From: a virus
DNA: 64,000 nucleotides
Reading direction: 5' to 3' (one strand)
Virus record (IMG/VR): IMGVR_UViG_3300010885_050098
Location: 12,358-76,357 of that record
The translations under genes and the position numbers were made by a program. Below the pieces are notes generated by a model. The model did not search any database, had not been told where the DNA came from, and worked only from the letters and a program-made list of their open reading frames with translations. Below, one piece after another: positions 4,753 to 14,551 of the stretch (within the stretch, counting starts at the first letter, position 1; each line of letters starts with the position of its first letter).

Positions 4753-4768
4753 TCGAACACCTGTTCGA
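4753..4768. promoter_or_regulatory. LexA SOS box (TCGAAC-N4-GTTCGA)
   Basis: TCGAACACCTGTTCGA, exact actinobacterial consensus. Confidence 0.85.
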
Positions 4769-4778
4769 ATAACTATCT

Positions 4779-4861
4779 TGCAAACTCTATTGACCCGACC
4801 CTATGCGCTCGCGTATGTTTCTCCTATCGCACACAAGTGCGAACGAACCGCAAAGGGGCTG
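4779..4861 (+). promoter_or_regulatory. cassette promoter 1: TGCAAACTCTA box, -35 TTGACC, -10 TATGTT, 5' hairpin, AAAGGGGCTG RBS
   Basis: Same architecture recurs at 5965, 6565, 7271, 8014, 8744, 9530, 10877 and 12707. Confidence 0.8.
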
Positions 4862-4864
4862 TAT

Positions 4865-5038
4865 ATGACACGCAAGGACTTCGAGTTAATCGCTCAAGTA
4901 ATCAAAGCACAACGCAAGCCACACAATGACACCGCAACACTCGACGAATTAACTCGCGAGTTTGCCTACGCACTAGCCGACACTAACCCACGCTTCGACA
5001 CTCACCGCTTCATCGAGGCTTGCAAGGTGAGCGCATGA
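4865..5038 (+). CDS. small phage protein (MTRKDFELIA...NPRFD..RF..AC)
   Basis: ATG follows the cassette RBS. Confidence 0.75.
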   Translation: MTRKDFELIAQVIKAQRKPHNDTATLDELTREFAYALADTNPRFDTHRFIEACKVSA

Positions 5039-5220
5039 AACTCAACCGACGAGGCGAGCGCGTTCTCGCGTTCTACATATTCTTCACAATGGCGCTGTTC
5101 GCTGGCGTTCTAGTAATGGGGGCAAACTTCCTACTTACTCATCACCAAGTAATCGACCAATCAACCTGCCACCAAACGGAGGACGGGTTGTCTTGCAAAT
5201 GGAATTGGGAGGCAAAATGA
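5035..5220 (+). CDS. small membrane protein
   Basis: ATGA overlap; one hydrophobic segment. Confidence 0.7.
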   Translation: MKLNRRGERVLAFYIFFTMALFAGVLVMGANFLLTHHQVIDQSTCHQTEDGLSCKWNWEAK

Positions 5221-5561
5221 CACAAGGAACCGAATTCAGAAAGGCGCAAGCCGAAGCACTAGCCAACCGCACCGCGTGTTGGATATGCAAGAACTACTTC
5301 GACCGCAAGGCAGGCGAGATGTCCTATCTCCTCGCTTATGTATTCGTCGGCAAAGTGGGAACTCTTGAACAAGAGATAACCGCTTACAACTTCGACAAGG
5401 TAGAAGACACTCGCAAGCCCGTCTTCGAGAAGCAATCTCACCTTGTCTGTAATCTGTGCGAGGAGAACCATGTTCTCGCCTACGCTGTGGAGAATATCTA
5501 CCCTAACGGCGGATACCACTCAACTCGCAAAGCAACCGACCTTCTATGGGATGAGGCGTAA
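5217..5561 (+). CDS. hypothetical protein with two CxxC motifs
   Basis: ATGA overlap, GGAGG RBS. Confidence 0.7.
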   Translation: MTQGTEFRKAQAEALANRTACWICKNYFDRKAGEMSYLLAYVFVGKVGTLEQEITAYNFDKVEDTRKPVFEKQSHLVCNLCEENHVLAYAVENIYPNGGYHSTRKATDLLWDEA

Positions 5562-5824
5562 TGAAACGCGAGGACTTAGAGAAAATGATTCACTTCATGG
5601 CTGGCGGAGTAGAAACCGCAGACGAGATCAAATTCGTAGATAAACACCTCGAAGGCTTTAACACCTTCCTACTGGATATGACTACTCACCGATTGGTTCA
5701 AGCTGGGATTGAGCTCGAGGAAGCTCAGTCCATGCTGCAAGGCCTGGTTCAAGTGAGCCGCATGCTCGGAGCTTCTCAGTTCCAAGAGTTCGTGCAGTTT
5801 CATCAAATCGTAGACCAAATATAA
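5561..5824 (+). CDS. hypothetical protein
   Basis: TAATG overlap; followed by a terminator. Confidence 0.7.
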   Translation: MKREDLEKMIHFMAGGVETADEIKFVDKHLEGFNTFLLDMTTHRLVQAGIELEEAQSMLQGLVQVSRMLGASQFQEFVQFHQIVDQI

Positions 5825-5828
5825 ATAG

Positions 5829-5866
5829 AAGGGCGTCCGCTGATCCTGGCGGGCGCTCTTTTTTTA
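5829..5866 (+). terminator. intrinsic terminator
   Basis: GGGCGTCCGC...GCGGGCGCTC stem plus T-run. Confidence 0.75.
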
Positions 5867-5885
5867 TGCGCCGCGCCGGGGCGCC

Positions 5886-5946
5886 AAATGTTTGTGTTGG
5901 AACCCGCCCTCCCTGTTCCTAATCCCTAAAGGGAAGGGGGAGAGAC
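5886..5946 (+). repeat. intergenic repeat element copy A (ATGTTTGTGTTG-CCCnCCCnCCC-hairpin-GAGAGA)
   Basis: Homologous copies at 7168, 7935, 8654, 9447 (inverted), 10784 and 12200. Confidence 0.85.
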
Positions 5947-5964
5947 GCCGGGCAGAAATTGGTC

Positions 5965-6049
5965 TGCAAACTCTATTGAATATGTCGGTGGTAGATGATT
6001 GAGTTCTCTCATGGCAAGCAACAAGGCAAGCCATTATAGATTGGGGCTG
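5965..6049 (+). promoter_or_regulatory. cassette promoter 2
   Basis: TGCAAACTCTATTGAAT ... GGGGCTG RBS. Confidence 0.75.
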
Positions 6050-6051
6050 TT

Positions 6052-6522
6052 ATGGGTCTTGATATGTATCTCCACGCTAAGAAGTATGTTAGCGGTTGGT
6101 CGCATGAGAAGGATACGAGCGAGTACCAAAGACTACGCGCTCTTTATCCTGAAGTCGAGATTGACGAGGGTTCTCCTTCGATTGAACTCGTCTTTACTGT
6201 TGGGTATTGGCGCAAGGCTAATGCCATTCATAGTTGGTTCGTTCAGAATGTCCAAGAAGGGCAAGATGATTGCAAGCCGTACTATGTTGAACCAACCGAC
6301 TTAATGAAGTTGAAGGAAGCATGCAGTTTGGAACTTCTAGTTCCTGCTGGTGGTGCTGGTGGTGGTGTTCTTGAACCTACTGCTGGTTTCTTTTTTGGTA
6401 ATGCCGAACGCGACGATTGGTATTACGAAAATCTTAATCGCACAATTCAGATTGTGGATAAGTGCCTAGCACTTCCGCAAGACGGCTGGCATTGGTCTTT
6501 CGAATATCAGTCTAGTTGGTAA
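6052..6522 (+). CDS. conserved phage hypothetical protein (MGLDMYL...YWRKANAIH...GFFFG family)
   Basis: Recognisable phage motif pattern; RBS present. Confidence 0.8.
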   Translation: MGLDMYLHAKKYVSGWSHEKDTSEYQRLRALYPEVEIDEGSPSIELVFTVGYWRKANAIHSWFVQNVQEGQDDCKPYYVEPTDLMKLKEACSLELLVPAGGAGGGVLEPTAGFFFGNAERDDWYYENLNRTIQIVDKCLALPQDGWHWSFEYQSSW

Positions 6523-6534
6523 TCCGTCGAAGGG

Positions 6535-6564
6535 AAGCGCCTCAGAAATGGGGCGCTTTTCTTT
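6535..6564 (+). terminator. intrinsic terminator
   Basis: AGCGCCTCA-GAAA-TGGGGCGCT plus T-run. Confidence 0.8.
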
Positions 6565-6646
6565 TGCAAACTCTATTGTATTTATTCAGTAGATGATTTA
6601 AGTTTCTCTTATCAGCGCAAGTCGCGTTGATATTTTCTTAGGGGGT
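6565..6646 (+). promoter_or_regulatory. cassette promoter 3
   Basis: TGCAAACTCTA-TTGTAT-17 nt-TAAGTT; hairpin ATCAGCGC/GCGTTGAT. Confidence 0.75.
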
Positions 6647-6650
6647 TAGC

Positions 6651-6902
6651 ATGGCAAACGATTTTTGGAATAAGTATTACGGCTCTTTCGTTGGAGCAAA
6701 GATTGTGAAGTTCGTTGGCATGAATACTGAGGACGATATGGGAGATGGTTTCCCTGAGTTCGAAGTCAAGTTCGCAGATGGCGAGATTGGGATTATCTCT
6801 ATCTCACAAGACCCTGAAGGTAATGGTGGCGGATTTATATTCGGCTTAGCATTACCACAAGACCACCCACAAGGTGGGGAAGTGAGGACACTCAATGCCT
6901 AG
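6651..6902 (+). CDS. hypothetical protein (QDPEGNGGG motif)
   Basis: Follows promoter and RBS. Confidence 0.75.
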   Translation: MANDFWNKYYGSFVGAKIVKFVGMNTEDDMGDGFPEFEVKFADGEIGIISISQDPEGNGGGFIFGLALPQDHPQGGEVRTLNA

Positions 6903-7083
6903 ATTAGAAATCGGTGACAAGTATGTCACTCAGAAGTCGGGTGTCGAAGGGATTATCCTTGAGATAGTCCCGAACGATACTGGATCCGTTCGCTTGCGGT
7001 TGGTAACACCTGCCCTTGAAACTCGTTGGACAACCTATGTCCCCGAGCGATTGGGACAAGTAAAGGTTTCATCAGCCCCCTGA
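6895..7083 (+). CDS. small beta-rich (SH3-like) protein; paralogue of 24859..25062
   Basis: Shared GDxYxTxxSGVxGxIxEIVPNxTG...RWTT. Confidence 0.75.
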   Translation: MPRLEIGDKYVTQKSGVEGIILEIVPNDTGSVRLRLVTPALETRWTTYVPERLGQVKVSSAP

Positions 7084-7088
7084 TTGAA

Positions 7089-7117
7089 AACTCCTGAGCA
7101 TGAGTTAAAAGTGCTCA
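7089..7117 (+). ncRNA. predicted compact H-type RNA pseudoknot
   Basis: S1 AACTC/GAGTT, S2 TGAGCAT/GTGCTCA, 1-nt L1, AAAA L3. Confidence 0.55.
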
Positions 7118-7121
7118 ACCA

Positions 7122-7168
7122 AAAAGCTCGTGGATCCTGGCACCGCGCCGGGAGCTGCGAGCTTTTTT
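7122..7168 (+). terminator. intrinsic terminator containing GGATCCTGGC
   Basis: AAAAAGCTCG...CGAGCTTTTTT. Confidence 0.7.
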
Positions 7169-7230
7169 GTTTGTGTTGAGACCCACCCTCCCTGTCTCTG
7201 ACTTACTTCGTAAGGGAGTTGTTGGAGAGA
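7168..7230 (+). repeat. intergenic repeat element copy B
   Basis: TGTTTGTGTTG-AGA-CCCACCCTCCC ... CTTAC-TTC-GTAAG ... GAGAGA. Confidence 0.85.
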
Positions 7231-7244
7231 TGCCGGGCGCAAGC

Positions 7245-7260
7245 TCGAACAGATGTTCGA
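7245..7260. promoter_or_regulatory. LexA SOS box
   Basis: TCGAACAGATGTTCGA, exact consensus; same offset to the TGCAAAC box as at 4753. Confidence 0.85.
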
Positions 7261-7270
7261 AAAAATAGTT

Positions 7271-7350
7271 TGCAAACTCTATTGAAAGTAGGAGAGCGAG
7301 CGCATAATGTTCTACCTATCAGCGCAAGGTGCGTTGATTGAAAGGGGCTG
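7271..7350 (+). promoter_or_regulatory. cassette promoter 4
   Basis: TGCAAACTCTA-TTGAAA-17 nt-TAATGT; hairpin; AAAGGGGCTG. Confidence 0.8.
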
Positions 7351-7354
7351 TAAA

Positions 7355-7810
7355 GTGCTAACGAATAAACAAGCACTTCAGGCTTATACGGAAATCGTAG
7401 AAGCCTACGCAAGCAACGAACCCTTGCCGACTACTTCGGTGAATATGTTCGTTGAAAGTATCAAAGACTTACAAGTCCGCGATTATCTCCTAGGTCATGC
7501 TCCAACGACCTTCGGTGCTCAGGGTGCGATTGAATTCGTAACCTCTATCCTTCCGCTAGTAGATGAGGGCGCTCGCGCTCCCTTCTACACTGTATTGTCT
7601 GCCTTCTATTATGAGGCTGGCGATAGCGAACTCGCGTTCGTATCATTAGTTCAAGCACAATTGCTTGACCCACAATATGCTCTAGCAAAATTGTTTGAGC
7701 GTGTTTACAAGGCTGGTTGGCCAGCCACCGCACTCGCGCAATTGCGCGTTGAACTTCACCCAAAGGTTGCAGAAACCTTTGAGGTTGAAACCGAGTTGGA
7801 GTTCGCGTAA
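7355..7810 (+). CDS. DUF4192-like helical protein
   Basis: D.QVRD...AP..T..A..Y..G...LA...L..A...DP.Y.LA.L pattern; GTG after RBS. Confidence 0.6.
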   Translation: MLTNKQALQAYTEIVEAYASNEPLPTTSVNMFVESIKDLQVRDYLLGHAPTTFGAQGAIEFVTSILPLVDEGARAPFYTVLSAFYYEAGDSELAFVSLVQAQLLDPQYALAKLFERVYKAGWPATALAQLRVELHPKVAETFEVETELEFA

Positions 7811-7821
7811 CTTCAGCCCCG

Positions 7822-7856
7822 AAGCCCCTCGGCAGAAATGCCGGGGGGCTTTTTTA
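7822..7856 (+). terminator. intrinsic terminator
   Basis: AAGCCCCTCGGCA-GAAA-TGCCGGGGGGCTT plus T-run. Confidence 0.8.
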
Positions 7857-7934
7857 ATTTCCGGATCCTGGCGCCGGCAGCTGAGATCCAGGCAGCTGTT
7901 TTTTTAGGGCGCCAAATAATATTTCCCGATGCCT

Positions 7935-7997
7935 AATGTTTGTGTTGGACAGCCCTCCCACCCTGTCTAACCCTTTCAGGGAATTAGGAGGAGAGAG
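7935..7997 (+). repeat. intergenic repeat element copy C
   Basis: AATGTTTGTGTTGG...CCCTCCCACCC...CCCT-TTC-AGGG...GAGAGA. Confidence 0.85.
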
Positions 7998-8013
7998 TTG
8001 CCCAGGAATAGTT

Positions 8014-8094
8014 CGCAAACTCTATTTACAAGTGGGTGCGCTGCGTGGGAGAGTTCATCTGTTGGAGAAGCCAAGTATCCGACAAGAAGGGCTG
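8014..8094 (+). promoter_or_regulatory. cassette promoter 5
   Basis: CGCAAACTCTATTTACA ... TGTTGGA/TCCGACA hairpin ... AAGGGCTG. Confidence 0.7.
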
Positions 8095-8099
8095 TTGAT

Positions 8100-8516
8100 A
8101 TGGCTAGGGCTATGTCTGTGAAAGTGCCAACCGCAAAAGTAATTGCCGCGTTGGAAGCAAGACTCGTAAAGACTCAAACCGAGTGGGACAATCGGGGCGA
8201 GGCTGAAGCAAAGTTCCAAGATGAACACAAGGCTTGGAGTGAAGAAATGAAGAAGTGGGCTGTTGCTCGCATCTCTAAAGCAGAGAATCTTCGTGCTAAT
8301 TATCGTTCGTGGAGTAATCAAGTCAATATCGACTTTGACCTCTCTACCAAAGATGGGGACTTCCCTATCGAGCCAAATCGCGAACACGAAAGTCGTGCGG
8401 AGTGGCAAGTCAAGGCTGAGGTTGAGGAAATCACCAACGCTCTAAATATCTTGCGTATGACTGACGAGGAATATGTAAATGCCTCGACTATGAAGTCAAT
8501 CTCGCAATATCTATAA
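8100..8516 (+). CDS. hypothetical protein
   Basis: ATG at 8100 follows the cassette RBS. Confidence 0.75.
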   Translation: MARAMSVKVPTAKVIAALEARLVKTQTEWDNRGEAEAKFQDEHKAWSEEMKKWAVARISKAENLRANYRSWSNQVNIDFDLSTKDGDFPIEPNREHESRAEWQVKAEVEEITNALNILRMTDEEYVNASTMKSISQYL

Positions 8517-8653
8517 GTAATCGAAACAGGGGCAGTTTGCGGGAGTTCTAGCCCAATGTCGTAAGTAAGAACCCGCACCTAGCAAGCGGCAGGGCCTGGG
8601 GCAACCCGGGCTCTGTCTGCCGCTGCCCAGGATCCAAGCGGCGCGGATCGCGC

Positions 8654-8709
8654 AAATGTTTGTGTTGGCCCTCCCACCCCGTTTATAGGGAGTATGTATG
8701 TAAGAGAGA
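8654..8709 (+). repeat. intergenic repeat element copy D
   Basis: AAATGTTTGTGTTGG-CCCTCCCACCCC...GAGAGA. Confidence 0.85.
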
Positions 8710-8743
8710 CTCAGCTGCCCGGTGGATCCTGGCAAAACTAGTC

Positions 8744-8810
8744 TGCAAACTCTATTTACACGAGCACGGCCAGCATGAGAGAGTTCGCCTACACCTCACG
8801 AAAGGGGCTG
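8744..8810 (+). promoter_or_regulatory. cassette promoter 6
   Basis: TGCAAACTCTATTTACA ... AAAGGGGCTG. Confidence 0.75.
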
Positions 8811-8817
8811 TTTACAT

Positions 8818-9360
8818 ATGGGTTATTACATTGACCTAACTGATGCCGATTGGGAAATTCCCGAAACCGCAGAAGTGCTAGAGGCGTTGAAAGAAATGCC
8901 TACCAAATATCACGCCATTAAACGTGGCGGTTCATCTAATGGAGAATCTTGGTTCTCATGGATGAGCGACGAAAGTATCCTCAACGCAGAGAGTGCGGAG
9001 AGAATATTCAACGACCTAGGGTTCGAGACTACGTCAACCGACGGTAGTTTTAAACTCGATGGTTACTCCAGCAAAACGGGCCAAGAAGATTTATTCTTGG
9101 CGGTCGTTGCCCCATTCTGCAAAACAGGTTCATACGTGGAATTCCGCGGTGAAGATGGAGCCGAATGGCAATACTCAGTACGTGATGGTGTCATGCAATA
9201 TTCAGAAGTTGCTCGTCACTTTCCCGAACCGCATCCGTGGCGCTACTCCCACTTCCAATTCGATGACGGTAAGACTCAGTCTTTCGCAATCGATATCACA
9301 AAACCTCTTCCAGAAGGGGTCCATAACGGCCACGATAAATACATCAAGGCCACAGTTTAA
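8818..9360 (+). CDS. conserved phage hypothetical protein (MGY...GEDG..W)
   Basis: Follows cassette RBS; ends before a terminator. Confidence 0.75.
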   Translation: MGYYIDLTDADWEIPETAEVLEALKEMPTKYHAIKRGGSSNGESWFSWMSDESILNAESAERIFNDLGFETTSTDGSFKLDGYSSKTGQEDLFLAVVAPFCKTGSYVEFRGEDGAEWQYSVRDGVMQYSEVARHFPEPHPWRYSHFQFDDGKTQSFAIDITKPLPEGVHNGHDKYIKATV

Positions 9361-9378
9361 AAGCTGAAAAAGCTGAAT

Positions 9379-9425
9379 GCTCTCACCGGGATCACCCTAG
9401 CGGATCCTGGTGGGAGCTTTTTTTA
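9379..9425 (+). terminator. intrinsic terminator containing GGATCCTGG
   Basis: GCTCTCACCGGGATC...GATCCTGGTGGGAGC plus T-run. Confidence 0.75.
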
Positions 9426-9446
9426 TTTAATAAATATCCCAAAGAG

Positions 9447-9470
9447 GGGAGGGTGGGCCGACACAAACAT
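9447..9470 (-). repeat. intergenic repeat element copy E (inverted)
   Basis: Reverse complement is ATGTTTGTGTCGGCCCACCCTCCC. Confidence 0.85.
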
Positions 9471-9529
9471 CTGGCTTTGGGTAATAAAGGCAAACGGAGC
9501 CCTCGGAGAGAGAGCGCGAAAAAATTCTT

Positions 9530-9607
9530 TGCAAACTCTATTTACACGGAGAGACTGAGCACGTAATGTTCTCCTTGTAAGCGGAAGTACCGATTACAGA
9601 AGGGCTG
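9530..9607 (+). promoter_or_regulatory. cassette promoter 7
   Basis: TGCAAACTCTA-TTTACA-17 nt-TAATGT; hairpin; AAGGGCTG. Confidence 0.8.
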
Positions 9608-9610
9608 AAA

Positions 9611-9856
9611 ATGCGTTCTCTAAGAGAGATTGCAATTGAAATTGAAAGAGAGTGTGCTGATAAGCAATGGTATTACTATGCCGAAGCCTACGTCACTCCA
9701 ATGAAGTCGCTTGAATCGCTGAGCGAGCGCTACTACGAAGATAGTGCTGAATCTATCGTCATGTATGCACTTGCTAATCTCACCTCATGGCGGGGTGATA
9801 CAGCTCGCCGAATCAAGGCCGAGCTCAACGCAATGCTGAAGGGGGTAAGCGCATGA
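9611..9856 (+). CDS. conserved small phage protein (MRSLREIA...YAEAY...Y.LANL..WRG..A.RIKAEL)
   Basis: Follows RBS. Confidence 0.75.
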   Translation: MRSLREIAIEIERECADKQWYYYAEAYVTPMKSLESLSERYYEDSAESIVMYALANLTSWRGDTARRIKAELNAMLKGVSA

Positions 9857-10227
9857 GCGAATTAACCACGCTCAGCTGCACCGAGCTTATAGCTCGTATC
9901 GAATCACTTGAGAATGGCATAACTAACTATAGTCGCCAGCTCTCACGTATTACCGAAGGCCTAACCGCCGATAGTTGGTACCGCTCTGAGGTGGAAAAAT
10001 CCACCGTGCTATCAGAGCTCTGCGAGATCCTGGGTGTTCAACCTACTCAGACCGTCTCCATCACCGCAACCCTTACGGTTTGCATGTCACACGAAGTGCC
10101 GCTCGATGAGCTGGAAGACTTCGATGCAGACCAATTGGTCTCAGACCAACTTTCTATCGATGTCTACGGTGGAGATACCACCCTCGACGATTGGTCGGTA
10201 GAGAGCGCTGATTGGGAAGAGCAATGA
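9853..10227 (+). CDS. acidic hypothetical protein
   Basis: ATGA overlap; D/E-rich C-terminal half. Confidence 0.75.
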   Translation: MSELTTLSCTELIARIESLENGITNYSRQLSRITEGLTADSWYRSEVEKSTVLSELCEILGVQPTQTVSITATLTVCMSHEVPLDELEDFDADQLVSDQLSIDVYGGDTTLDDWSVESADWEEQ

Positions 10228-10460
10228 ACGTAGCTCCATCCCAAGACCTCATGACTCGCTTCAAGGTTCAGGCGGCCATCACGGCCGCTTGGACTGAGTA
10301 TGGCGAGCTGTACGAAGCTGAAGAGGCCGGTGGCTTCTCCGACGCTATGGAATCGATGGAGAGAAAATATGCAGAAGGTGTAGCTGAAGGGCTCAGCTCT
10401 GCATACTTCATGATTTATAACGAATCGTTCCCACCATCGGAGGATGAAAGTGCCATATAA
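10224..10460 (+). CDS. acidic hypothetical protein
   Basis: ATGA overlap at 10224. Confidence 0.65.
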   Translation: MNVAPSQDLMTRFKVQAAITAAWTEYGELYEAEEAGGFSDAMESMERKYAEGVAEGLSSAYFMIYNESFPPSEDESAI

Positions 10461-10737
10461 CCCAAGAGCTGAAAGAGAAGCGGCGATCCTGGCATACACG
10501 GATGAAGACCGGGATGCGATGGACGATACCAACCCGGTTACTCATGCAGAGACTGGCCCTAACCGATTCCATCTCATGTCTCTATTCTTCTCAGATACTG
10601 ACGGTGTTCAGATTCAAGAGGATATGGAGCTCAATGAGATAACCGTTACCTACTTCAATGACGCATTAGTTAGCGAGGAGATTACGGAAGGCCCGATGTA
10701 TGACTGGGCCATCGAGCAATACAACGGCTGGATTTAA
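10444..10737 (+). CDS. acidic hypothetical protein
   Basis: Overlapping ORF followed by a terminator-like hairpin. Confidence 0.65.
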   Translation: MKVPYNPRAEREAAILAYTDEDRDAMDDTNPVTHAETGPNRFHLMSLFFSDTDGVQIQEDMELNEITVTYFNDALVSEEITEGPMYDWAIEQYNGWI

Positions 10738-10783
10738 ACGAGGCCCCTGCTGCGCTTGCGCGGTGGGGGTTTTGCCATGCCCG

Positions 10784-10840
10784 AAATGTTTGTGTTGAAG
10801 CCCACCCTCCCTCATTATGGGAAATATATATAAAGAGAGA
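10784..10840 (+). repeat. intergenic repeat element copy F
   Basis: AAATGTTTGTGTTG-AAG-CCCACCCTCCC...GAGAGA. Confidence 0.85.
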
Positions 10841-10850
10841 TCCCTGGCCG

Positions 10851-10866
10851 TGTGACGTAGCTCACA
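10851..10866. promoter_or_regulatory. CRP/GlxR box (TGTGA-N6-TCACA)
   Basis: TGTGACGTAGCTCACA, exact consensus, in the slot occupied by the SOS box elsewhere. Confidence 0.75.
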
Positions 10867-10944
10867 AGAGAGAGTCTGCAGACTCTATATACATTCGACG
10901 GTTGACGTGTCAATATACGGTTAGCAATAAAAGAAAGGGCTGTC

Positions 10945-11643
10945 ATGAAATTAAAACGTAGTAAGGACCGCAAGGTTGCGAATTCACTCACCGCGGGTGG
11001 AAACGTACGTATTGCGAATTCTTTCGGGCTACCGTCCGGGAGAGAGTACTCATGTCCGGGCGCCACTAGTATATGCGAACGCATATGTTATGCGGGCAAG
11101 CTTGAGAAGCTATATCCAGGCGTTAGAGAGAATCTCACACACAATTGGGATTTACTTAAGAATGCAGACCATGACACTATGGAGAATCTCCTAATGGAGA
11201 TGATCGAGGAATTCAAGGCCGAATGCGATAAGTGGAATGCGCCTAAGTCATTCCGTATCCATTGGGACGGGGATTTCTTTAATGGTGAGTACGCATTCGC
11301 GTGGAAACACGTCATCCTTAATAACCCGGATGTTAAATTTTGGGTATACACACGGGTAGAATCGGCCGCGTACATGCTTAAGGGCATGGAGAATCTTTCT
11401 CTCTATTTCTCCGGAGATAGCGAGAATTTCGAGGCCGCAGCACGGTTGAAAGAGCACGGGATATTAATCGCTAGTCTCGATGAGACTTTCGATCGGGCCC
11501 GTGGAGCGCTTAAACTTATTGGAGAGAAGTCTGCAATATGCCCTGAGCAACGTAAGCAAATACCTCTAAACGGAGCCTGCATTGCATGCGGGATTTGCGT
11601 AGAGGGTAAAGTCAATATATCGTTCTCGATATCTAAGAAATAA
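10945..11643 (+). CDS. Gp88-like (radical-SAM-related) phage protein
   Basis: FGLP...SCPGAT..C..ICYA, FRIH.DGDFF, FWVYTR, C-terminal CP..C..CG.C. Confidence 0.7.
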   Translation: MKLKRSKDRKVANSLTAGGNVRIANSFGLPSGREYSCPGATSICERICYAGKLEKLYPGVRENLTHNWDLLKNADHDTMENLLMEMIEEFKAECDKWNAPKSFRIHWDGDFFNGEYAFAWKHVILNNPDVKFWVYTRVESAAYMLKGMENLSLYFSGDSENFEAAARLKEHGILIASLDETFDRARGALKLIGEKSAICPEQRKQIPLNGACIACGICVEGKVNISFSISKK

Positions 11644-11652
11644 GGAGCAAGA

Positions 11653-11928
11653 ATGGGATCAACACTAGCAAGAGAGCTAGCGGGAGGAGATTTGGGCTTA
11701 GATCTACGGGCCCAGATCACCATCCAGCTACGTAGTAATCATTACCCACCGGTACCGTATGAGATGGTGGATCCATGCATGGATGCCATCGTGGCATATA
11801 ACGATGGAGACACCGATCTATTGATCGCGCTACCATCGCCGATTAAGTGGAAAGGCCAGGATCACGCACCGGCCTATGCAATAATTGAGTCGCATCACCT
11901 TAATGATTGGATCTCATATGAAGAGTAA
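11653..11928 (+). CDS. hypothetical protein (L.SNHYPPVP motif)
   Basis: AAGGAG RBS. Confidence 0.7.
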   Translation: MGSTLARELAGGDLGLDLRAQITIQLRSNHYPPVPYEMVDPCMDAIVAYNDGDTDLLIALPSPIKWKGQDHAPAYAIIESHHLNDWISYEE

Positions 11929-12010
11929 CCTGCAGATTAAGCTTGATGCGGCCGCTAAGGCCCTAGAGCCCATCCTATGGGAGACATTGGATGAGATTGA
12001 TGAAGAATGA
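11918..12010 (+). CDS. tiny acidic peptide (30 aa)
   Basis: Read manually: MKSNLQIKLDAAAKALEPILWETLDEIDEE. Confidence 0.45.
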   Translation: MKSNLQIKLDAAAKALEPILWETLDEIDEE

Positions 12011-12092
12011 ATTTCAAGAGCTGATGGATCGGGTCCTTAAGGAGGGGCTCGATCGCATCGATCAGCTAACTGAAGAAGAGTTGCTCTCCTAA
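12000..12092 (+). CDS. tiny acidic peptide (30 aa)
   Basis: Read manually: MKNEFQELMDRVLKEGLDRIDQLTEEELLS; terminator follows. Confidence 0.45.
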   Translation: MKNEFQELMDRVLKEGLDRIDQLTEEELLS

Positions 12093-12107
12093 CGGATCGA
12101 GCATCAC

Positions 12108-12151
12108 GGCGTCCATCCCCACACAGCCCGGGGTTGGGCGCCTTTTCTTTT
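12108..12151 (+). terminator. intrinsic terminator
   Basis: GGCGTCCA-TCCCC...GGGG-TTGGGCGCC plus T-run. Confidence 0.65.
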
Positions 12152-12199
12152 GGCGAGCGCCCATTTATTGTTTGGTTGTTTGCCTACACCCATATTTCC

Positions 12200-12254
12200 A
12201 AATGTTTGTGTTGACCCACCCTCCCCTTATCCCTTCGGGATAGGGTAAGAGAGA
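12200..12254 (+). repeat. intergenic repeat element copy G
   Basis: AAATGTTTGTGTTG-A-CCCACCCTCCCC...TATCCC-TTC-GGGATA...GAGAGA. Confidence 0.85.
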
Positions 12255-12276
12255 CATCGATGTCAATAGAGTCTGC

Positions 12277-12292
12277 TGTGATGGCCATCACA
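12277..12292. promoter_or_regulatory. CRP/GlxR box
   Basis: TGTGATGGCCATCACA, perfect palindrome. Confidence 0.75.
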
Positions 12293-12300
12293 TGGAGAGA

Positions 12301-12321
12301 GTTGAGTCGGATCGACTCAAG
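12301..12321. promoter_or_regulatory. HAIR-like operator (HspR site)
   Basis: GTTGAGT-N7-ACTCAAG versus consensus CTTGAGT-N7-ACTCAAG (13/14). Confidence 0.65.
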
Positions 12322-12492
12322 TTTTATGAGCCGGAATGAGCAATCTCGAAGAGAGAGAGAGGATCGAAGATCCTGGCACATTCATGCAGAGAGAGAGAGA
12401 AGAGAGAGAGGCATGCAAGCTCCGAAGGAGCTGGCTAGGCTACTGTCTCAGCATGCGAGACGATGAGCAGTCGTGCCACCAGGTCAAATGCT

Positions 12493-12508
12493 TGTTTCAC
12501 GTGAAACT
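12493..12508. promoter_or_regulatory. parS centromere site
   Basis: TGTTTCACGTGAAACT; contains the exact actinobacterial core GTTTCACGTGAAAC. Confidence 0.85.
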
Positions 12509-12679
12509 ATGCGTATATCTTCGATATTGCATATATCTTTGATCGCCATCTCAGGCTGTGGAGAGATTAAGGAAGCAGAGATAAGTAATTGGATATCTAT
12601 CTCTCTTATATCTCTCTCTTGAATATGCTCTCTCTAATTAAAACAAGGAAATGTAAAGGGCCGTATTTCCACAGGGCGC

Positions 12680-12695
12680 TGTGTTGTAAGTCACA
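12680..12695. promoter_or_regulatory. CRP/GlxR-like box (1 mismatch)
   Basis: TGTGT-TGTAAG-TCACA just upstream of TGCAAACTCAC. Confidence 0.55.
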
Positions 12696-12706
12696 TGGTA
12701 AATGTA

Positions 12707-12771
12707 TGCAAACTCACTTGCGCTAGATACTAGCTGAGGAGTAGGTTGGCCTCCTAAGCCAAACAAGGGAG
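12707..12771 (+). promoter_or_regulatory. cassette promoter 9
   Basis: TGCAAACTCAC-TTGCGC-18 nt-TAGGTT; AAGGGAG RBS. Confidence 0.65.
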
Positions 12772-12777
12772 AAAACT

Positions 12778-13026
12778 ATGGCTATAGATGCTAGAGAGAA
12801 AGTCCTATTGGATCTTCTTGAGAAAGGCTATGTACCCGGTATCAATGGTGAAGGCAGTGCAACATTAACCGTTAAGGGCTTTGTTGGTGCCAATATTGTC
12901 GCTGCTCGGGTTGCTCTACGAGAGTTACCTCGTCCATTGAGTGAGCAAGATATTGTTGAAATTATCGAGTTCCTGCAAACGGCAGAATCCTCACTAACTT
13001 ACCTAACTGATCCTGAGGATGACTAA
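12778..13026 (+). CDS. hypothetical protein
   Basis: RBS and promoter upstream. Confidence 0.7.
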   Translation: MAIDAREKVLLDLLEKGYVPGINGEGSATLTVKGFVGANIVAARVALRELPRPLSEQDIVEIIEFLQTAESSLTYLTDPEDD

Positions 13027-13199
13027 TGGCTTGGTGGATGAATTATATGAATACCACAATGGTATGTATTAACGGCTGTGGTGTATCGCGTTCATACGTC
13101 GGAGAAGAATTTGAATTAGCGGAATCATGTCCACAATGTAAAAAAGAAATGGAAGGGTTACGCATCCTAAAGAAGGGGATTACAAATGACACACAATGA
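13026..13199 (+). CDS. small zinc-ribbon-like protein
   Basis: Read manually; CINGC...CPQC; TAATG overlap. Confidence 0.5.
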   Translation: MAWWMNYMNTTMVCINGCGVSRSYVGEEFELAESCPQCKKEMEGLRILKKGITNDTQ

Positions 13200-13398
13200 A
13201 TTAATAGAGGCTGTAAATAGTCCAACGTATATGAGTAGTAGAACTTTAGAGCATCCGTATATTGCACTTCGTGCAGTGTTGGAAATACACGCTCCTTTTG
13301 AAAGCGGTGTATGCGGATGTGAAATTGATAATCCAGTTCTTTCTTACATGTATCCATGTGCAACCGTTCGCGCTATTGAAAAGGAGTTGTCAATATGA
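13186..13398 (+). CDS. hypothetical protein (H.P...C..C...YPC.T.RAI motif)
   Basis: Cys/His pattern common in actinophage small proteins. Confidence 0.65.
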   Translation: MTHNELIEAVNSPTYMSSRTLEHPYIALRAVLEIHAPFESGVCGCEIDNPVLSYMYPCATVRAIEKELSI

Positions 13399-13685
13399 CA
13401 ATAAACACATATGAAAAACTAAGACCAATTGCGGATGTATGGGCGTGGCAACATAAAGGAAACTGCGTTGGTAAAAACACTGAATTGTTCTTTTTAGAAA
13501 CAAGTGTCCGAGGGCCAAATAAAACTAGACAAGAAAACGAAGCAAAGGCAATTTGTAAAGGTTGCCCAGTTAAAAATGAATGTTTAAACCACGCTTTAAC
13601 TACTCCTGAATACTACGGTGTATGGGGCGGTTTAAGCGCCGATGAACGTTCTTTTTATAGCGCAAACCGAAGGGAAATTGCATGA
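13395..13685 (+). CDS. whiB: WhiB-family transcription factor
   Basis: W...C...FF...AK.IC..CPV...CL...GVWGG. Confidence 0.93.
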   Translation: MTINTYEKLRPIADVWAWQHKGNCVGKNTELFFLETSVRGPNKTRQENEAKAICKGCPVKNECLNHALTTPEYYGVWGGLSADERSFYSANRREIA

Positions 13686-14551
13686 AAGCAGTATCGTTAT
13701 TTGCAGGTGTAGGCGGGTTTGATCTCGCACTAGAACGAGCTGGTGTAACTGTTGTTGCATCATGTGAAATTGATAAGTACGCACAAAAGGTGTTGGCACA
13801 ACACTTTCCTAATTCAACAATAATCAACGATGTAAAGGATGTAACAGGTGATCAACTTAAACAACTCGGATTCGACGGTAGTGACGGAATTATTGTCGGA
13901 GGATTTCCATGCCAAGACTTGTCCGTTGCGGGAAAGCGAGCAGGACTCGCTGGATCTAGGTCAGGACTCTTCTGGGAAATCTGTCGCATCCTCGACGAAA
14001 CGAAAGCGAAGTGGTTCGTCCTCGAAAACGTCCCCGGTTTGCTGTCATCTAACGACGGACGAGATATGGGAACCGTCATCCAAGCGTTGGTTGAGCGCGG
14101 GTACGGGGTCAGTTACAGGATTTTGGACGCTCAGTACTTCGGAGTCGCCCAAAGACGTCGCAGAGTCTTCATTGTCGGATGTCTTGGAGATGACGGGCGA
14201 GCATCTGCAGAAGTACTCGCTCTCGTTGAAGGCATGCGAGGGCATCTTGAGACGAGCAACACGAAGAGGGAAAAAACTTCCCGAGGCTCTTCATCAAGCA
14301 CTGGAGAATCAGACAAGAAAATAGCACGCATGCGTGGCTTTGGTGACTACGAGTTAGATCATAAAGCAGGCGCATTAAAAGCACGTGATTGGAAAGATGC
14401 TACCGATCTTGTGTATCCCGAAGGAAATGTAGGAACTATAACTACAGCCTTTGGCGCAAAGAACTATTCAAATCACCAAGAACTCATGGAAGGAAGCGTG
14501 GTTGTATATGACGAACTGGTTCGTGAAAAGTCGCAGAGCGCAAAACGTTGA
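13682..14551 (+). CDS. C5 cytosine DNA methyltransferase, N-terminal part (motifs I-VIII)
   Basis: LFAGVGG, GGFPCQDLS, LENVPG, QRRRRVF. Confidence 0.92.
   Translation: MKAVSLFAGVGGFDLALERAGVTVVASCEIDKYAQKVLAQHFPNSTIINDVKDVTGDQLKQLGFDGSDGIIVGGFPCQDLSVAGKRAGLAGSRSGLFWEICRILDETKAKWFVLENVPGLLSSNDGRDMGTVIQALVERGYGVSYRILDAQYFGVAQRRRRVFIVGCLGDDGRASAEVLALVEGMRGHLETSNTKREKTSRGSSSSTGESDKKIARMRGFGDYELDHKAGALKARDWKDATDLVYPEGNVGTITTAFGAKNYSNHQELMEGSVVVYDELVREKSQSAKR
13848..14324 (+). CDS. nested +1-frame ORF, probable methyltransferase subunit (true start uncertain)
   Basis: C-terminal SSLSDVLE...KYSLSLKACEGILRRATRRGKKLP resembles the post-motif-VIII segment of phage C5 MTases. Confidence 0.55.
   Translation: MINLNNSDSTVVTELLSEDFHAKTCPLRESEQDSLDLGQDSSGKSVASSTKRKRSGSSSKTSPVCCHLTTDEIWEPSSKRWLSAGTGSVTGFWTLSTSESPKDVAESSLSDVLEMTGEHLQKYSLSLKACEGILRRATRRGKKLPEALHQALENQTRK

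Follow-up and report, generated by a model that had tools for sequence, protein, structure and literature searches.

A conserved non-coding control region with CRP/GlxR-type boxes and a host-type parS in a family of freshwater phages

The gene-free stretch and its relatives

We analyzed a gene-free stretch of about 680 bases in a phage genome, situated between an open reading frame ending at 12092 and one starting at 12778, together with the CRP/GlxR-type boxes and the parS site that it contains. Positions refer to the window, the 64,000-nucleotide (nt) part of a 76-kb IMG/VR virus record (~45% G+C) that was analysed. The record encodes a tail sheath, baseplate proteins, a family-A DNA polymerase, a DnaB-type helicase and a class II ribonucleotide reductase, and a WhiB-type regulator gene is found at 13395-13685. 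By DNA polymerase, the closest cultured relatives are large Streptomyces phages (~40% identity), and the sequencing runs containing the sequence are freshwater metagenomes; on these two grounds we read it as an uncultured freshwater actinophage. A near-identity search among GenBank phages returned no match, and a search of species genomes with the phage WhiB as a clue to the host found nothing. An earlier reading of the DNA letters alone (the sequence-only reading) had noted sites for CRP, HspR and ParB in this stretch, along with further palindromes, direct repeats and GA/CT runs, and every one of these motifs is present at the coordinates given there.

The stretch is a conserved non-coding control region. 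Relatives were collected from viral and metagenome collections via a flanking gene of 232 amino acids (aa) and an exact 18-nt small hairpin; L-numbers (for example L018 and L162) denote these related phage loci, and each homologue of the gene-free stretch is called a hub. Conservation in related phages had been proposed as a check on the sequence-only reading, and homologous hubs occur in about 19 distinct freshwater sequences (viral and metagenome contigs), all gene-free and built in a common order of modules. The neighbourhood is kept as well, with a 91-aa gene upstream and an 82-aa gene, a WhiB gene and a methylase gene downstream. Close-to-identical relatives differ solely by 2- or 4-nt changes in the length of their GA or CT runs. 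Such 2-nt slippage breaks reading frames, and translated similarity is spread over several frames and both strands, which argues for conservation at the level of DNA. A protein-coding reading is ruled out on these two counts, as the earlier view of the stretch had anticipated. Two independent DNA runs give its sequence with zero differences. RNA contigs from two metatranscriptome runs contain flanking genes only (12946-13125, and 11669-11970 from a relative) and are uninformative for the stretch, in which no Rfam family was detected at the gathering threshold or at E <= 1.

Palindromes are unusually dense here. Inverted repeats with arms of at least 5 nt form 13 centres, compared to 5.2 +/- 2.4 in 300 dinucleotide shuffles, none of which (0/300) reached 13, and the stretch is the 676-nt segment with the most inverted repeats across the 64 kb. 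Looser motif tests over the whole window, allowing one or two mismatches to the CRP, parS and HAIR (HspR-site) patterns, were not significant alone; the statistical weight comes from exact matches and conservation in relatives.

The stretch belongs to a series of about nine self-contained early cassettes at 4.7-12.8 kb of the window. Each cassette begins with a terminator hairpin, a D2 box (AAATGTTTGTGTTGG..CCCACCCTCCC), a small hairpin, GAGAGA and an optional palindrome, and continues with a D3 box (GCAAACTCTA fused to a -35 element such as TTGAAA or TTTACA), 17 nt, a -10 element such as TAATGT, a leader, a AAGGGGCTGT-type ribosome site and a small gene. The distance from D2 to D3 is 81-108 nt in the other cassettes and 509 nt in the stretch, which makes the stretch a cassette spacer enlarged by ~420-450 nt. 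The extra DNA consists of operator-type palindromes, small hairpins and GA/CT microsatellites.

CRP/GlxR-type boxes and parS

The promoter-linked elements, the parS site and the operon they precede are as follows:

12261-12276, minus strand: inverted promoter box reading GCAGACTCTATTGACA, with a TTGACA -35; its distance to the first CRP box centre is 18.5 nt
12277-12292, no strand: perfect CRP/GlxR-type box TGTGATGGCCATCACA with divergent -35-like hexamers on either side; homologous boxes or arrays in relatives
12302-12327, plus strand: terminator-type hairpin TTGAGTCG-GAT-CGACTCAA followed by GTTTTAT, from a terminator scan
12493-12508, no strand: host-type parS, TGTTTCACGTGAAAC at 12493-12507, with the inner 14-mer GTTTCACGTGAAAC exact and 15/16 positions matching TGTTNCACGTGAAACA
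12680-12695, no strand: CRP-type box TGTGTTGTAAGTCACA with one mismatch, upstream of the promoter of the downstream operon
12704-12747, plus strand: putative D3-type promoter with GCAAAC at 12708-12713, -35 TTGCGC at 12718-12723 and -10 TAGGTT at 12742-12747, assigned from a nine-copy alignment
12778-13026, plus strand: first gene of the downstream operon (82 aa), then WhiB (13395-13685) and a DNA methyltransferase (13682-14551)

Perfect TGTGA-N6-TCACA boxes are far more frequent than expected, and this box is the usual one ahead of early promoters throughout the family. The window has two (12277 and 10851, the latter in the optional slot of another cassette) versus ~0.06 expected, and the phage loci have 36 distinct ones versus 0.2 expected. 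In the family profile T or C is favoured after TGTGA, A is nearly excluded, and a central TA is favoured, which fits TGTGANNTANNTCACA, the GlxR/CRP consensus of Corynebacterium and Mycobacterium (PMC4254451). The 12680 box is conserved; at its position, relatives carry cGTGATGCAGGTCACA or TGTGAGTCAAGTCACA. A Crp-type helix-turn-helix (HTH) was not found in the record or in five relatives, three of which are 100% complete; all five small actinomycete genomes sampled (5/5) encode one, in a sample that may not include the real host. The CRP-type sites that the sequence-only reading had picked out are borne out as real, selected sites of host type in a phage family in which no Crp-type HTH was found.

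The boxes also have a regular relation to promoters. Outside the hubs, box centres lie 71-100 nt upstream of start codons and ~18.5 nt upstream of the -35, as judged from putative -35/-10 elements. The promoter-linked boxes of the window (10851 and 12680) are centred 29.5-30.5 nt before the -35, 11-12 nt farther out than in relatives; this shift equals one helical turn, so the boxes still face the same side of the helix. Centred at 12284.5, the first hub box lies between an inverted TTGACA (18.5 nt to the left) and TTGAGT (17.5 nt to the right) and looks like a box shared by a divergent promoter pair. The inverted GCAAAG..TTGACA to its left is also present in L155, L182, L162, L018 and L025. 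The sites had been described as lacking their usual target genes. We come to a different view for the boxes, which have targets because they stand at fixed distances from phage -35 elements. The densest array of the family, in which five to six CRP-type boxes follow one another back to back at a 16-17-bp period, is found at 4088-4200 of L024 (equivalent to 869-980 of L026), after the D2 box of an ordinary cassette and upstream of a 232-aa-type gene.

In sister cassettes, the same slot is occupied by LexA-type boxes of the actinobacterial kind (TCGAAC-N4-GTTCGA). Two are present in the window (4753-4768 and 7245-7260) versus 0.004 expected, and seven distinct ones in relatives (L022, L023, L024, L029 and L153) versus 0.04 expected; in L029, a LexA box is immediately followed by a CRP box, and this in turn by the promoter. 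In the nine D3 boxes of the window (4776-12720), a 10-bp palindrome, GTTTGCAAAC, stands where relatives carry CTTTGC-(CRP box)-GCAAAG; it has the appearance of the two outer arms of that site, joined after the box between them was lost. TTTGCAAA also resembles the corynebacterial RamB site.

The 16-bp consensus of chromosomal parS is TGTTNCACGTGAAACA (PMC7022226). By our own arithmetic, ~2e-4 exact 14-mers are expected per 64 kb. The exact 14-mer or the 16-mer consensus is found in five distinct hubs from four lineages, in a single copy per genome and at three positions: directly after the boxes (L018/L162 and L024, the latter matching 16/16), near the promoter beside TGTCGACA (L022, which fits the N-containing consensus) and, in the window, in the small-hairpin slot. 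Overall identity between L018 and L162 is 80%, yet parS is preserved intact in both, along with the bases next to it. Judged by this pattern of recurrence, parS is very probably kept by selection and not by chance. Within the sampled class, 231 of 301 genomes contain the 14-mer (224 of 294 when seven unpublished ones are left aside), compared to 0 for the reversed control. At Pfam sensitivity, ParB_N, AAA_31 (ParA-type), Phage_integrase and Resolvase are absent from the record and from three 100%-complete relatives. The proposed ParB site is real by its exact 14-mer and its presence in four lineages of phages that have no ParB. The perfect 16-mer occurs in at least 119 IMG/VR viral contigs, so it is not rare among viral contigs; several parS contigs (L227-L306 of the scan) hold clusters of three to five copies, and these multi-parS contigs may be plasmid-like elements or fragments of host origin regions.

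The HspR assignment fared differently. The sequence GTTGAGT-CGGATCG-ACTCAAG (12301-12321) agrees with 13 of 14 positions of the HAIR site of HspR (CTTGAGT-N7-ACTCAAG). The same hairpin stands in terminator position in L157 (3641-3690), L198 (864-910), L208 (3277-3320) and L209 (983-1030), directly before the U-rich tract TTTGTTTGTGTTGG, and not in a promoter that it could repress. Relatives show drift of the hairpin's 3' arm, which there reads GCTCAAG, GCTCAAC or ACTCAGC. Among ten aligned copies, 97.5% of stem cells are paired; variation at four pairs is confined to G.U on the plus strand, the exceptions to G.U-compatible change being two U.U mismatches at the closing pair. Moreover, the outer bases of the 'spacer' are paired, the loop is freely variable and a T-run follows. 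We rejected the HspR/HAIR operator on the basis of the terminator position, the G.U-only drift and the paired spacer ends, and the look-alike is read as an intrinsic terminator hairpin that recurs in the family. That one hairpin serves as both terminator and HAIR site is doubtful.

Flanking elements and core modules

The remaining features of the stretch are these:

12126-12182, plus strand: GC-rich terminator-like hairpins with a T-rich tail, after the upstream 33-aa and 91-aa genes (terminator scan and sequence)
12195-12228, plus strand: D2 box AAATGTTTGTGTTGACCCACCCTCCCC, one of seven copies of repeat family D2 in the early arm
12229-12246, plus strand: hairpin ATCCCTTCGGGATAGGGT, followed by GAGAGA at 12248-12253 (exact-pattern scans)
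12253-12264, no strand: palindrome GACATCGATGTC, overlapping the leftward -35
12350-12410, plus strand: (GA)n microsatellite runs at 12350-12361 and 12388-12410, within GA runs extending overall from 12248 to 12410
12435-12445, plus strand: conserved motif CTAGGCTACTG, with GGCTACT invariant in an alignment of 14 lineages
12445-12461, no strand: variable palindrome slot, GTCTC-N7-GAGAC in the window and a perfect CRP box, TTGTCGACAA or TGACCGGTCA in relatives
12467-12482, plus strand: core block GCAGTCGTGCCACCAG, with CCA invariant, the next G in 13/14 and a fixed spacing to GGCTACT
12511-12543, plus strand: AT-rich direct repeat GCRTATATCTTYGAT, copies at 12511 and 12529; ATATGCGTATAT or its reverse complement in relatives
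12548-12582, plus strand: conserved inverted repeat ATCTC...GAGAT around AGCC..GTAGAGAYTAA, from comparison with relatives
12600-12635, plus strand: (CT)n runs that complement the GA runs (inverted repeat I3: 31 nt with 81% complementarity)
12642-12657, plus strand: conserved motif AACAAGGAAATGTAAA, AACAAGGAGAWGTAAA in relatives

The order of modules is shared by the related hubs. D2, the small hairpin and (GA)n come first, followed by one to four back-to-back TGTGA-N6-TCACA boxes, often a TTGAGTCG...CGRCTCAA hairpin, and a long (GA)n run. Then come CGACATTAAATGTCGACAAA-type palindromes, TTAGGCTACTG, the lineage-variable palindrome slot and GCAGTYGTGCCACCAGCTCTACAGCC. A lineage-variable small hairpin, ATATGCGTATAT, (CT)n and AACAAGGAGAWGTAAA lead to the closing CRP-type box with GCAAAG, promoter and gene. 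GA thus precedes CT in relatives as well.

Since the terminator hairpin abuts TTTGTTTGTGTTGG in L157, L198, L208 and L209, the T/G-rich 5' half of the D2 box (TGTTTGTGTTG) forms the U-tract of the terminator hairpin before it. The terminator reading offers no explanation for the C-rich half CCCACCCTCCC or for the hairpin after it. The 18-nt hairpin ATCCCTTCGGGATAGGGT is identical at ~100 places in viral and metagenome contigs; in about 24 of the 65 distinct contexts that extend far enough downstream, D2, a CRP-type box and a GA run are all lacking in the vicinity, and the hairpin may be present outside the phage family. The palindrome GACATCGATGTC is missing at its place in relatives, which have a hub-specific palindrome, TGTCGACA, elsewhere in the region. 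In the form (A/T)TGTCGACA(A/T), this element is present in one or two copies in nearly every related hub (L007 7353, L020 6738/6779, L024 5627/5662, L165 2239/2268, L182 11577/11609 and others), is almost absent from the 8-15 kb flanks, and is not found in the window phage.

Several candidate identities were set aside. Resemblances of the unassigned motifs to IdeR, NrdR, PHO and DnaA sites were dismissed by eye or by the DnaA-box scan, and the D2 box and GGCTACT were discarded as sigma-70-type promoters on account of a too variable spacing to candidate -10/-35 hexamers. In the downstream operon, the first 193 residues of the DNA methyltransferase (13682-14551) are 83-91% identical between phages whose neighbouring proteins are 40-67% identical, in a comparison covering the window and L007, L019, L020, L030, L161, L182 and L183. 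This N-terminal identity represents unusually strong conservation or recent exchange.

Proposed host-coupled control, its alternatives and known systems

We hold with moderate confidence that the stretch is a host-wired control region acting at the level of DNA, an early-gene cassette spacer that would couple phage promoters to host CRP and probably also dock host ParB. Which proteins bind, in which direction they regulate and what the phage gains are points that we infer. According to the mechanism we propose, a CRP/GlxR-type dimer of the host would occupy the TGTGA-N6-TCACA boxes, including the one at 12277 between divergent -35-like hexamers, such that early transcription and entry into the WhiB/methylase operon would follow the cAMP and energy state of the host. 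In sister cassettes, LexA-type boxes fill the same operator slot. In some lineages, host ParB would load at the single parS and, as in phi29 with Spo0J, could give access to the host partition machinery or cause local silencing in a delayed or arrested infection. The HAIR look-alike would act as a terminator hairpin that insulates the units. A platform for sensing the host state, which the sequence-only reading had offered as its second option, is consistent with the conserved sites and the fixed promoter geometry.

Several points weigh against host-coupled control. The box distances depend on -35/-10 elements that are themselves inferred, and the palindromes might be recognised by some phage protein that escaped detection. 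With parS missing in about half of the hub lineages, the site is dispensable, and many small genomes (1.2-1.5 Mb) of the sampled class have no exact 14-mer. In relatives, the slot that holds parS in the window is filled by hairpins with unrelated stems (GTTTC/GAAAC, GTTCA/TGAAC, CTCTCT/AGAGAG and GGACC/GGTCC); the GTTTC/GAAAC stem of the window's parS also appears in a plain hairpin of close relatives, and, considered by itself, the window's copy could be a variant hairpin with a chance resemblance to parS. The wobble-only drift of the terminator hairpin and the co-varying small hairpins hint at a single-strand action of part of the region, as RNA or single-stranded DNA. Finally, the model leaves the ~250-nt core (GGCTACT...CCAG...TACAG), the TGTCGACA palindromes and the GA/CT runs unexplained.

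These points have to be considered along with the rival explanations. The sequence-only reading had favoured a decoy platform, in which the sites of the replicating phage soak up host CRP, HspR and ParB and thereby de-repress or disturb host regulons. Back-to-back arrays of three to six boxes without a promoter at the usual distance, found in some relatives (for example at L024 4088-4200 and, with three boxes each, where the L019, L020 and L029 hubs begin), and the fact that the phages encode none of the binding proteins would suit such a function. However, the genome of this phage offers no more than three boxes of CRP type together with a single parS and a single HAIR look-alike, the last of which is a terminator hairpin; parS is absent from about half of the lineages, and the boxes keep a fixed geometry to the -35, as in working operators. 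We found no evidence that supports titration itself and consider a decoy very unlikely. Alternatively, the palindromes might be operators of phage-encoded proteins that match host consensus sites by convergence or mimicry. Given that early promoters must act before any phage protein exists, that three independent exact host-consensus matches (CRP, parS and LexA) recur across lineages and that three complete genomes hold neither a Crp-type HTH nor ParB_N, this explanation appears unlikely, although most small early proteins have no recognisable family, TGTCGACA, GACATCGATGTC and TGACCGGTCA match no host site that we can name, and most CRP-type boxes here are replaced by GTTTGCAAAC, as would be seen if regulator and operator changed together.

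The hairpins raise a further alternative, namely that part of the stretch works as a single strand, either as a structured non-coding RNA or long leader, or as DNA hairpins at entry or replication, with GA pairing to CT around the core. The conserved GA-then-CT order and the 31-nt GA/CT complement, folding z-scores of -2.5 (plus strand) and -4.1 (minus strand), small hairpins with unrelated stems at the same place across lineages and one hairpin that drifts only by G.U-compatible changes all point in this direction. Palindrome-rich DNA, however, generally folds better than shuffles on both strands, and RNAalifold found no consensus structure in a 14-lineage alignment of the core, partly owing to 1-base differences in hairpin length; with no Rfam match and no promoter identified for such an RNA, we regard single-strand action as improbable. 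Another alternative is a physical boundary or dock comparable to the injection stop signal (iss) of phage T5, or a replication/partition region; placed where the first-entering block of early genes ends, it would hold the DNA through host proteins. The stretch ends the array of about nine early cassettes and precedes an operon-type block, and the nearest cultured relatives by DNA polymerase are large phages, those of Streptomyces. The T5 iss is likewise a large, untranslated and conserved stretch after the first early block, crowded with repeats, inverted repeats, palindromes and host-protein boxes; those boxes are DnaA boxes, in a 10-kb terminal repeat (bioRxiv 10.1101/866236). In contrast, DnaA boxes (TTATCCACA/TTGTCCACA) are absent from our stretch at one mismatch or fewer, and none of the 18 related hubs has a perfect one. 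In complete relatives, the terminal repeats on record turned out to be assembly overlaps of 114 nt and hence not evidence of physical ends, and contig depths over the stretch are inconsistent between runs (8.7 then 4.1 in X2; 4.0, 6.5 and 2.5 in X3), such that no repeat boundary is demonstrable. A T5-like function is, in our estimation, distinctly unlikely.

The proposed host-coupled control resembles several known systems. Promoters activated by GlxR/CRP in Corynebacterium and Mycobacterium have the same 16-bp palindrome with central TA upstream of the -35; unlike these, the boxes described here are phage-borne, sometimes form back-to-back arrays, and include one box between divergent -35-like hexamers. 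A precedent comes from Bacillus phage phi29 (and Nf), in which host Spo0A boxes lie at early and late promoters and five host-type parS sites are bound by Spo0J (PMC2731898). Common to both systems are a phage without lysogeny or partition genes, sites for a host regulator at promoters, and the parS of the host chromosome. The systems differ in that the regulator sites are of CRP/GlxR type here, with LexA-type boxes in sister cassettes, rather than Spo0A boxes; in that there is one parS, dispensable in half of the lineages, rather than five; and in that the likely hosts are non-sporulating and the present system is known from its sequence. A second parallel is found in pilus- or flagellum-specific phages of Alphaproteobacteria, whose intergenic regions are rich in CtrA sites, with CtrA binding shown experimentally and 'lytic deferment' proposed (PMC9437464). 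There too, large intergenic and promoter regions are unusually dense in binding sites of a host master regulator for which the phage has no gene, suggestive of host-state sensing. Regulator and host phylum are different, however, and our sites are one module among parS, palindromes and microsatellites.

Carried further, and tentatively, these comparisons outline a virulent freshwater actinophage family that may use host CRP and LexA boxes as swappable early operators and, in some lineages, an orphan parS; lysis would be postponed in starved, non-sporulating hosts, the genome would be partitioned by host ParABS, and the GA/CT-flanked core would be a tunable spacer or switch. In lakes, freshwater Actinobacteria count among the most abundant bacteria, and to our knowledge almost nothing is known about the timing of infection by their phages. 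If host CRP and ParB act on the sites of the stretch, the early programme of these phages and the fate of their genomes would be coupled to host nutrition and chromosome segregation, and the paradigm of phi29 and the CtrA phages would reach a new phylum and hosts that do not sporulate. The family itself presents a natural series of modules (CRP, LexA, parS and other palindromes) swapped in fixed slots, a convenient system in which to study cis-regulatory shuffling in phages.

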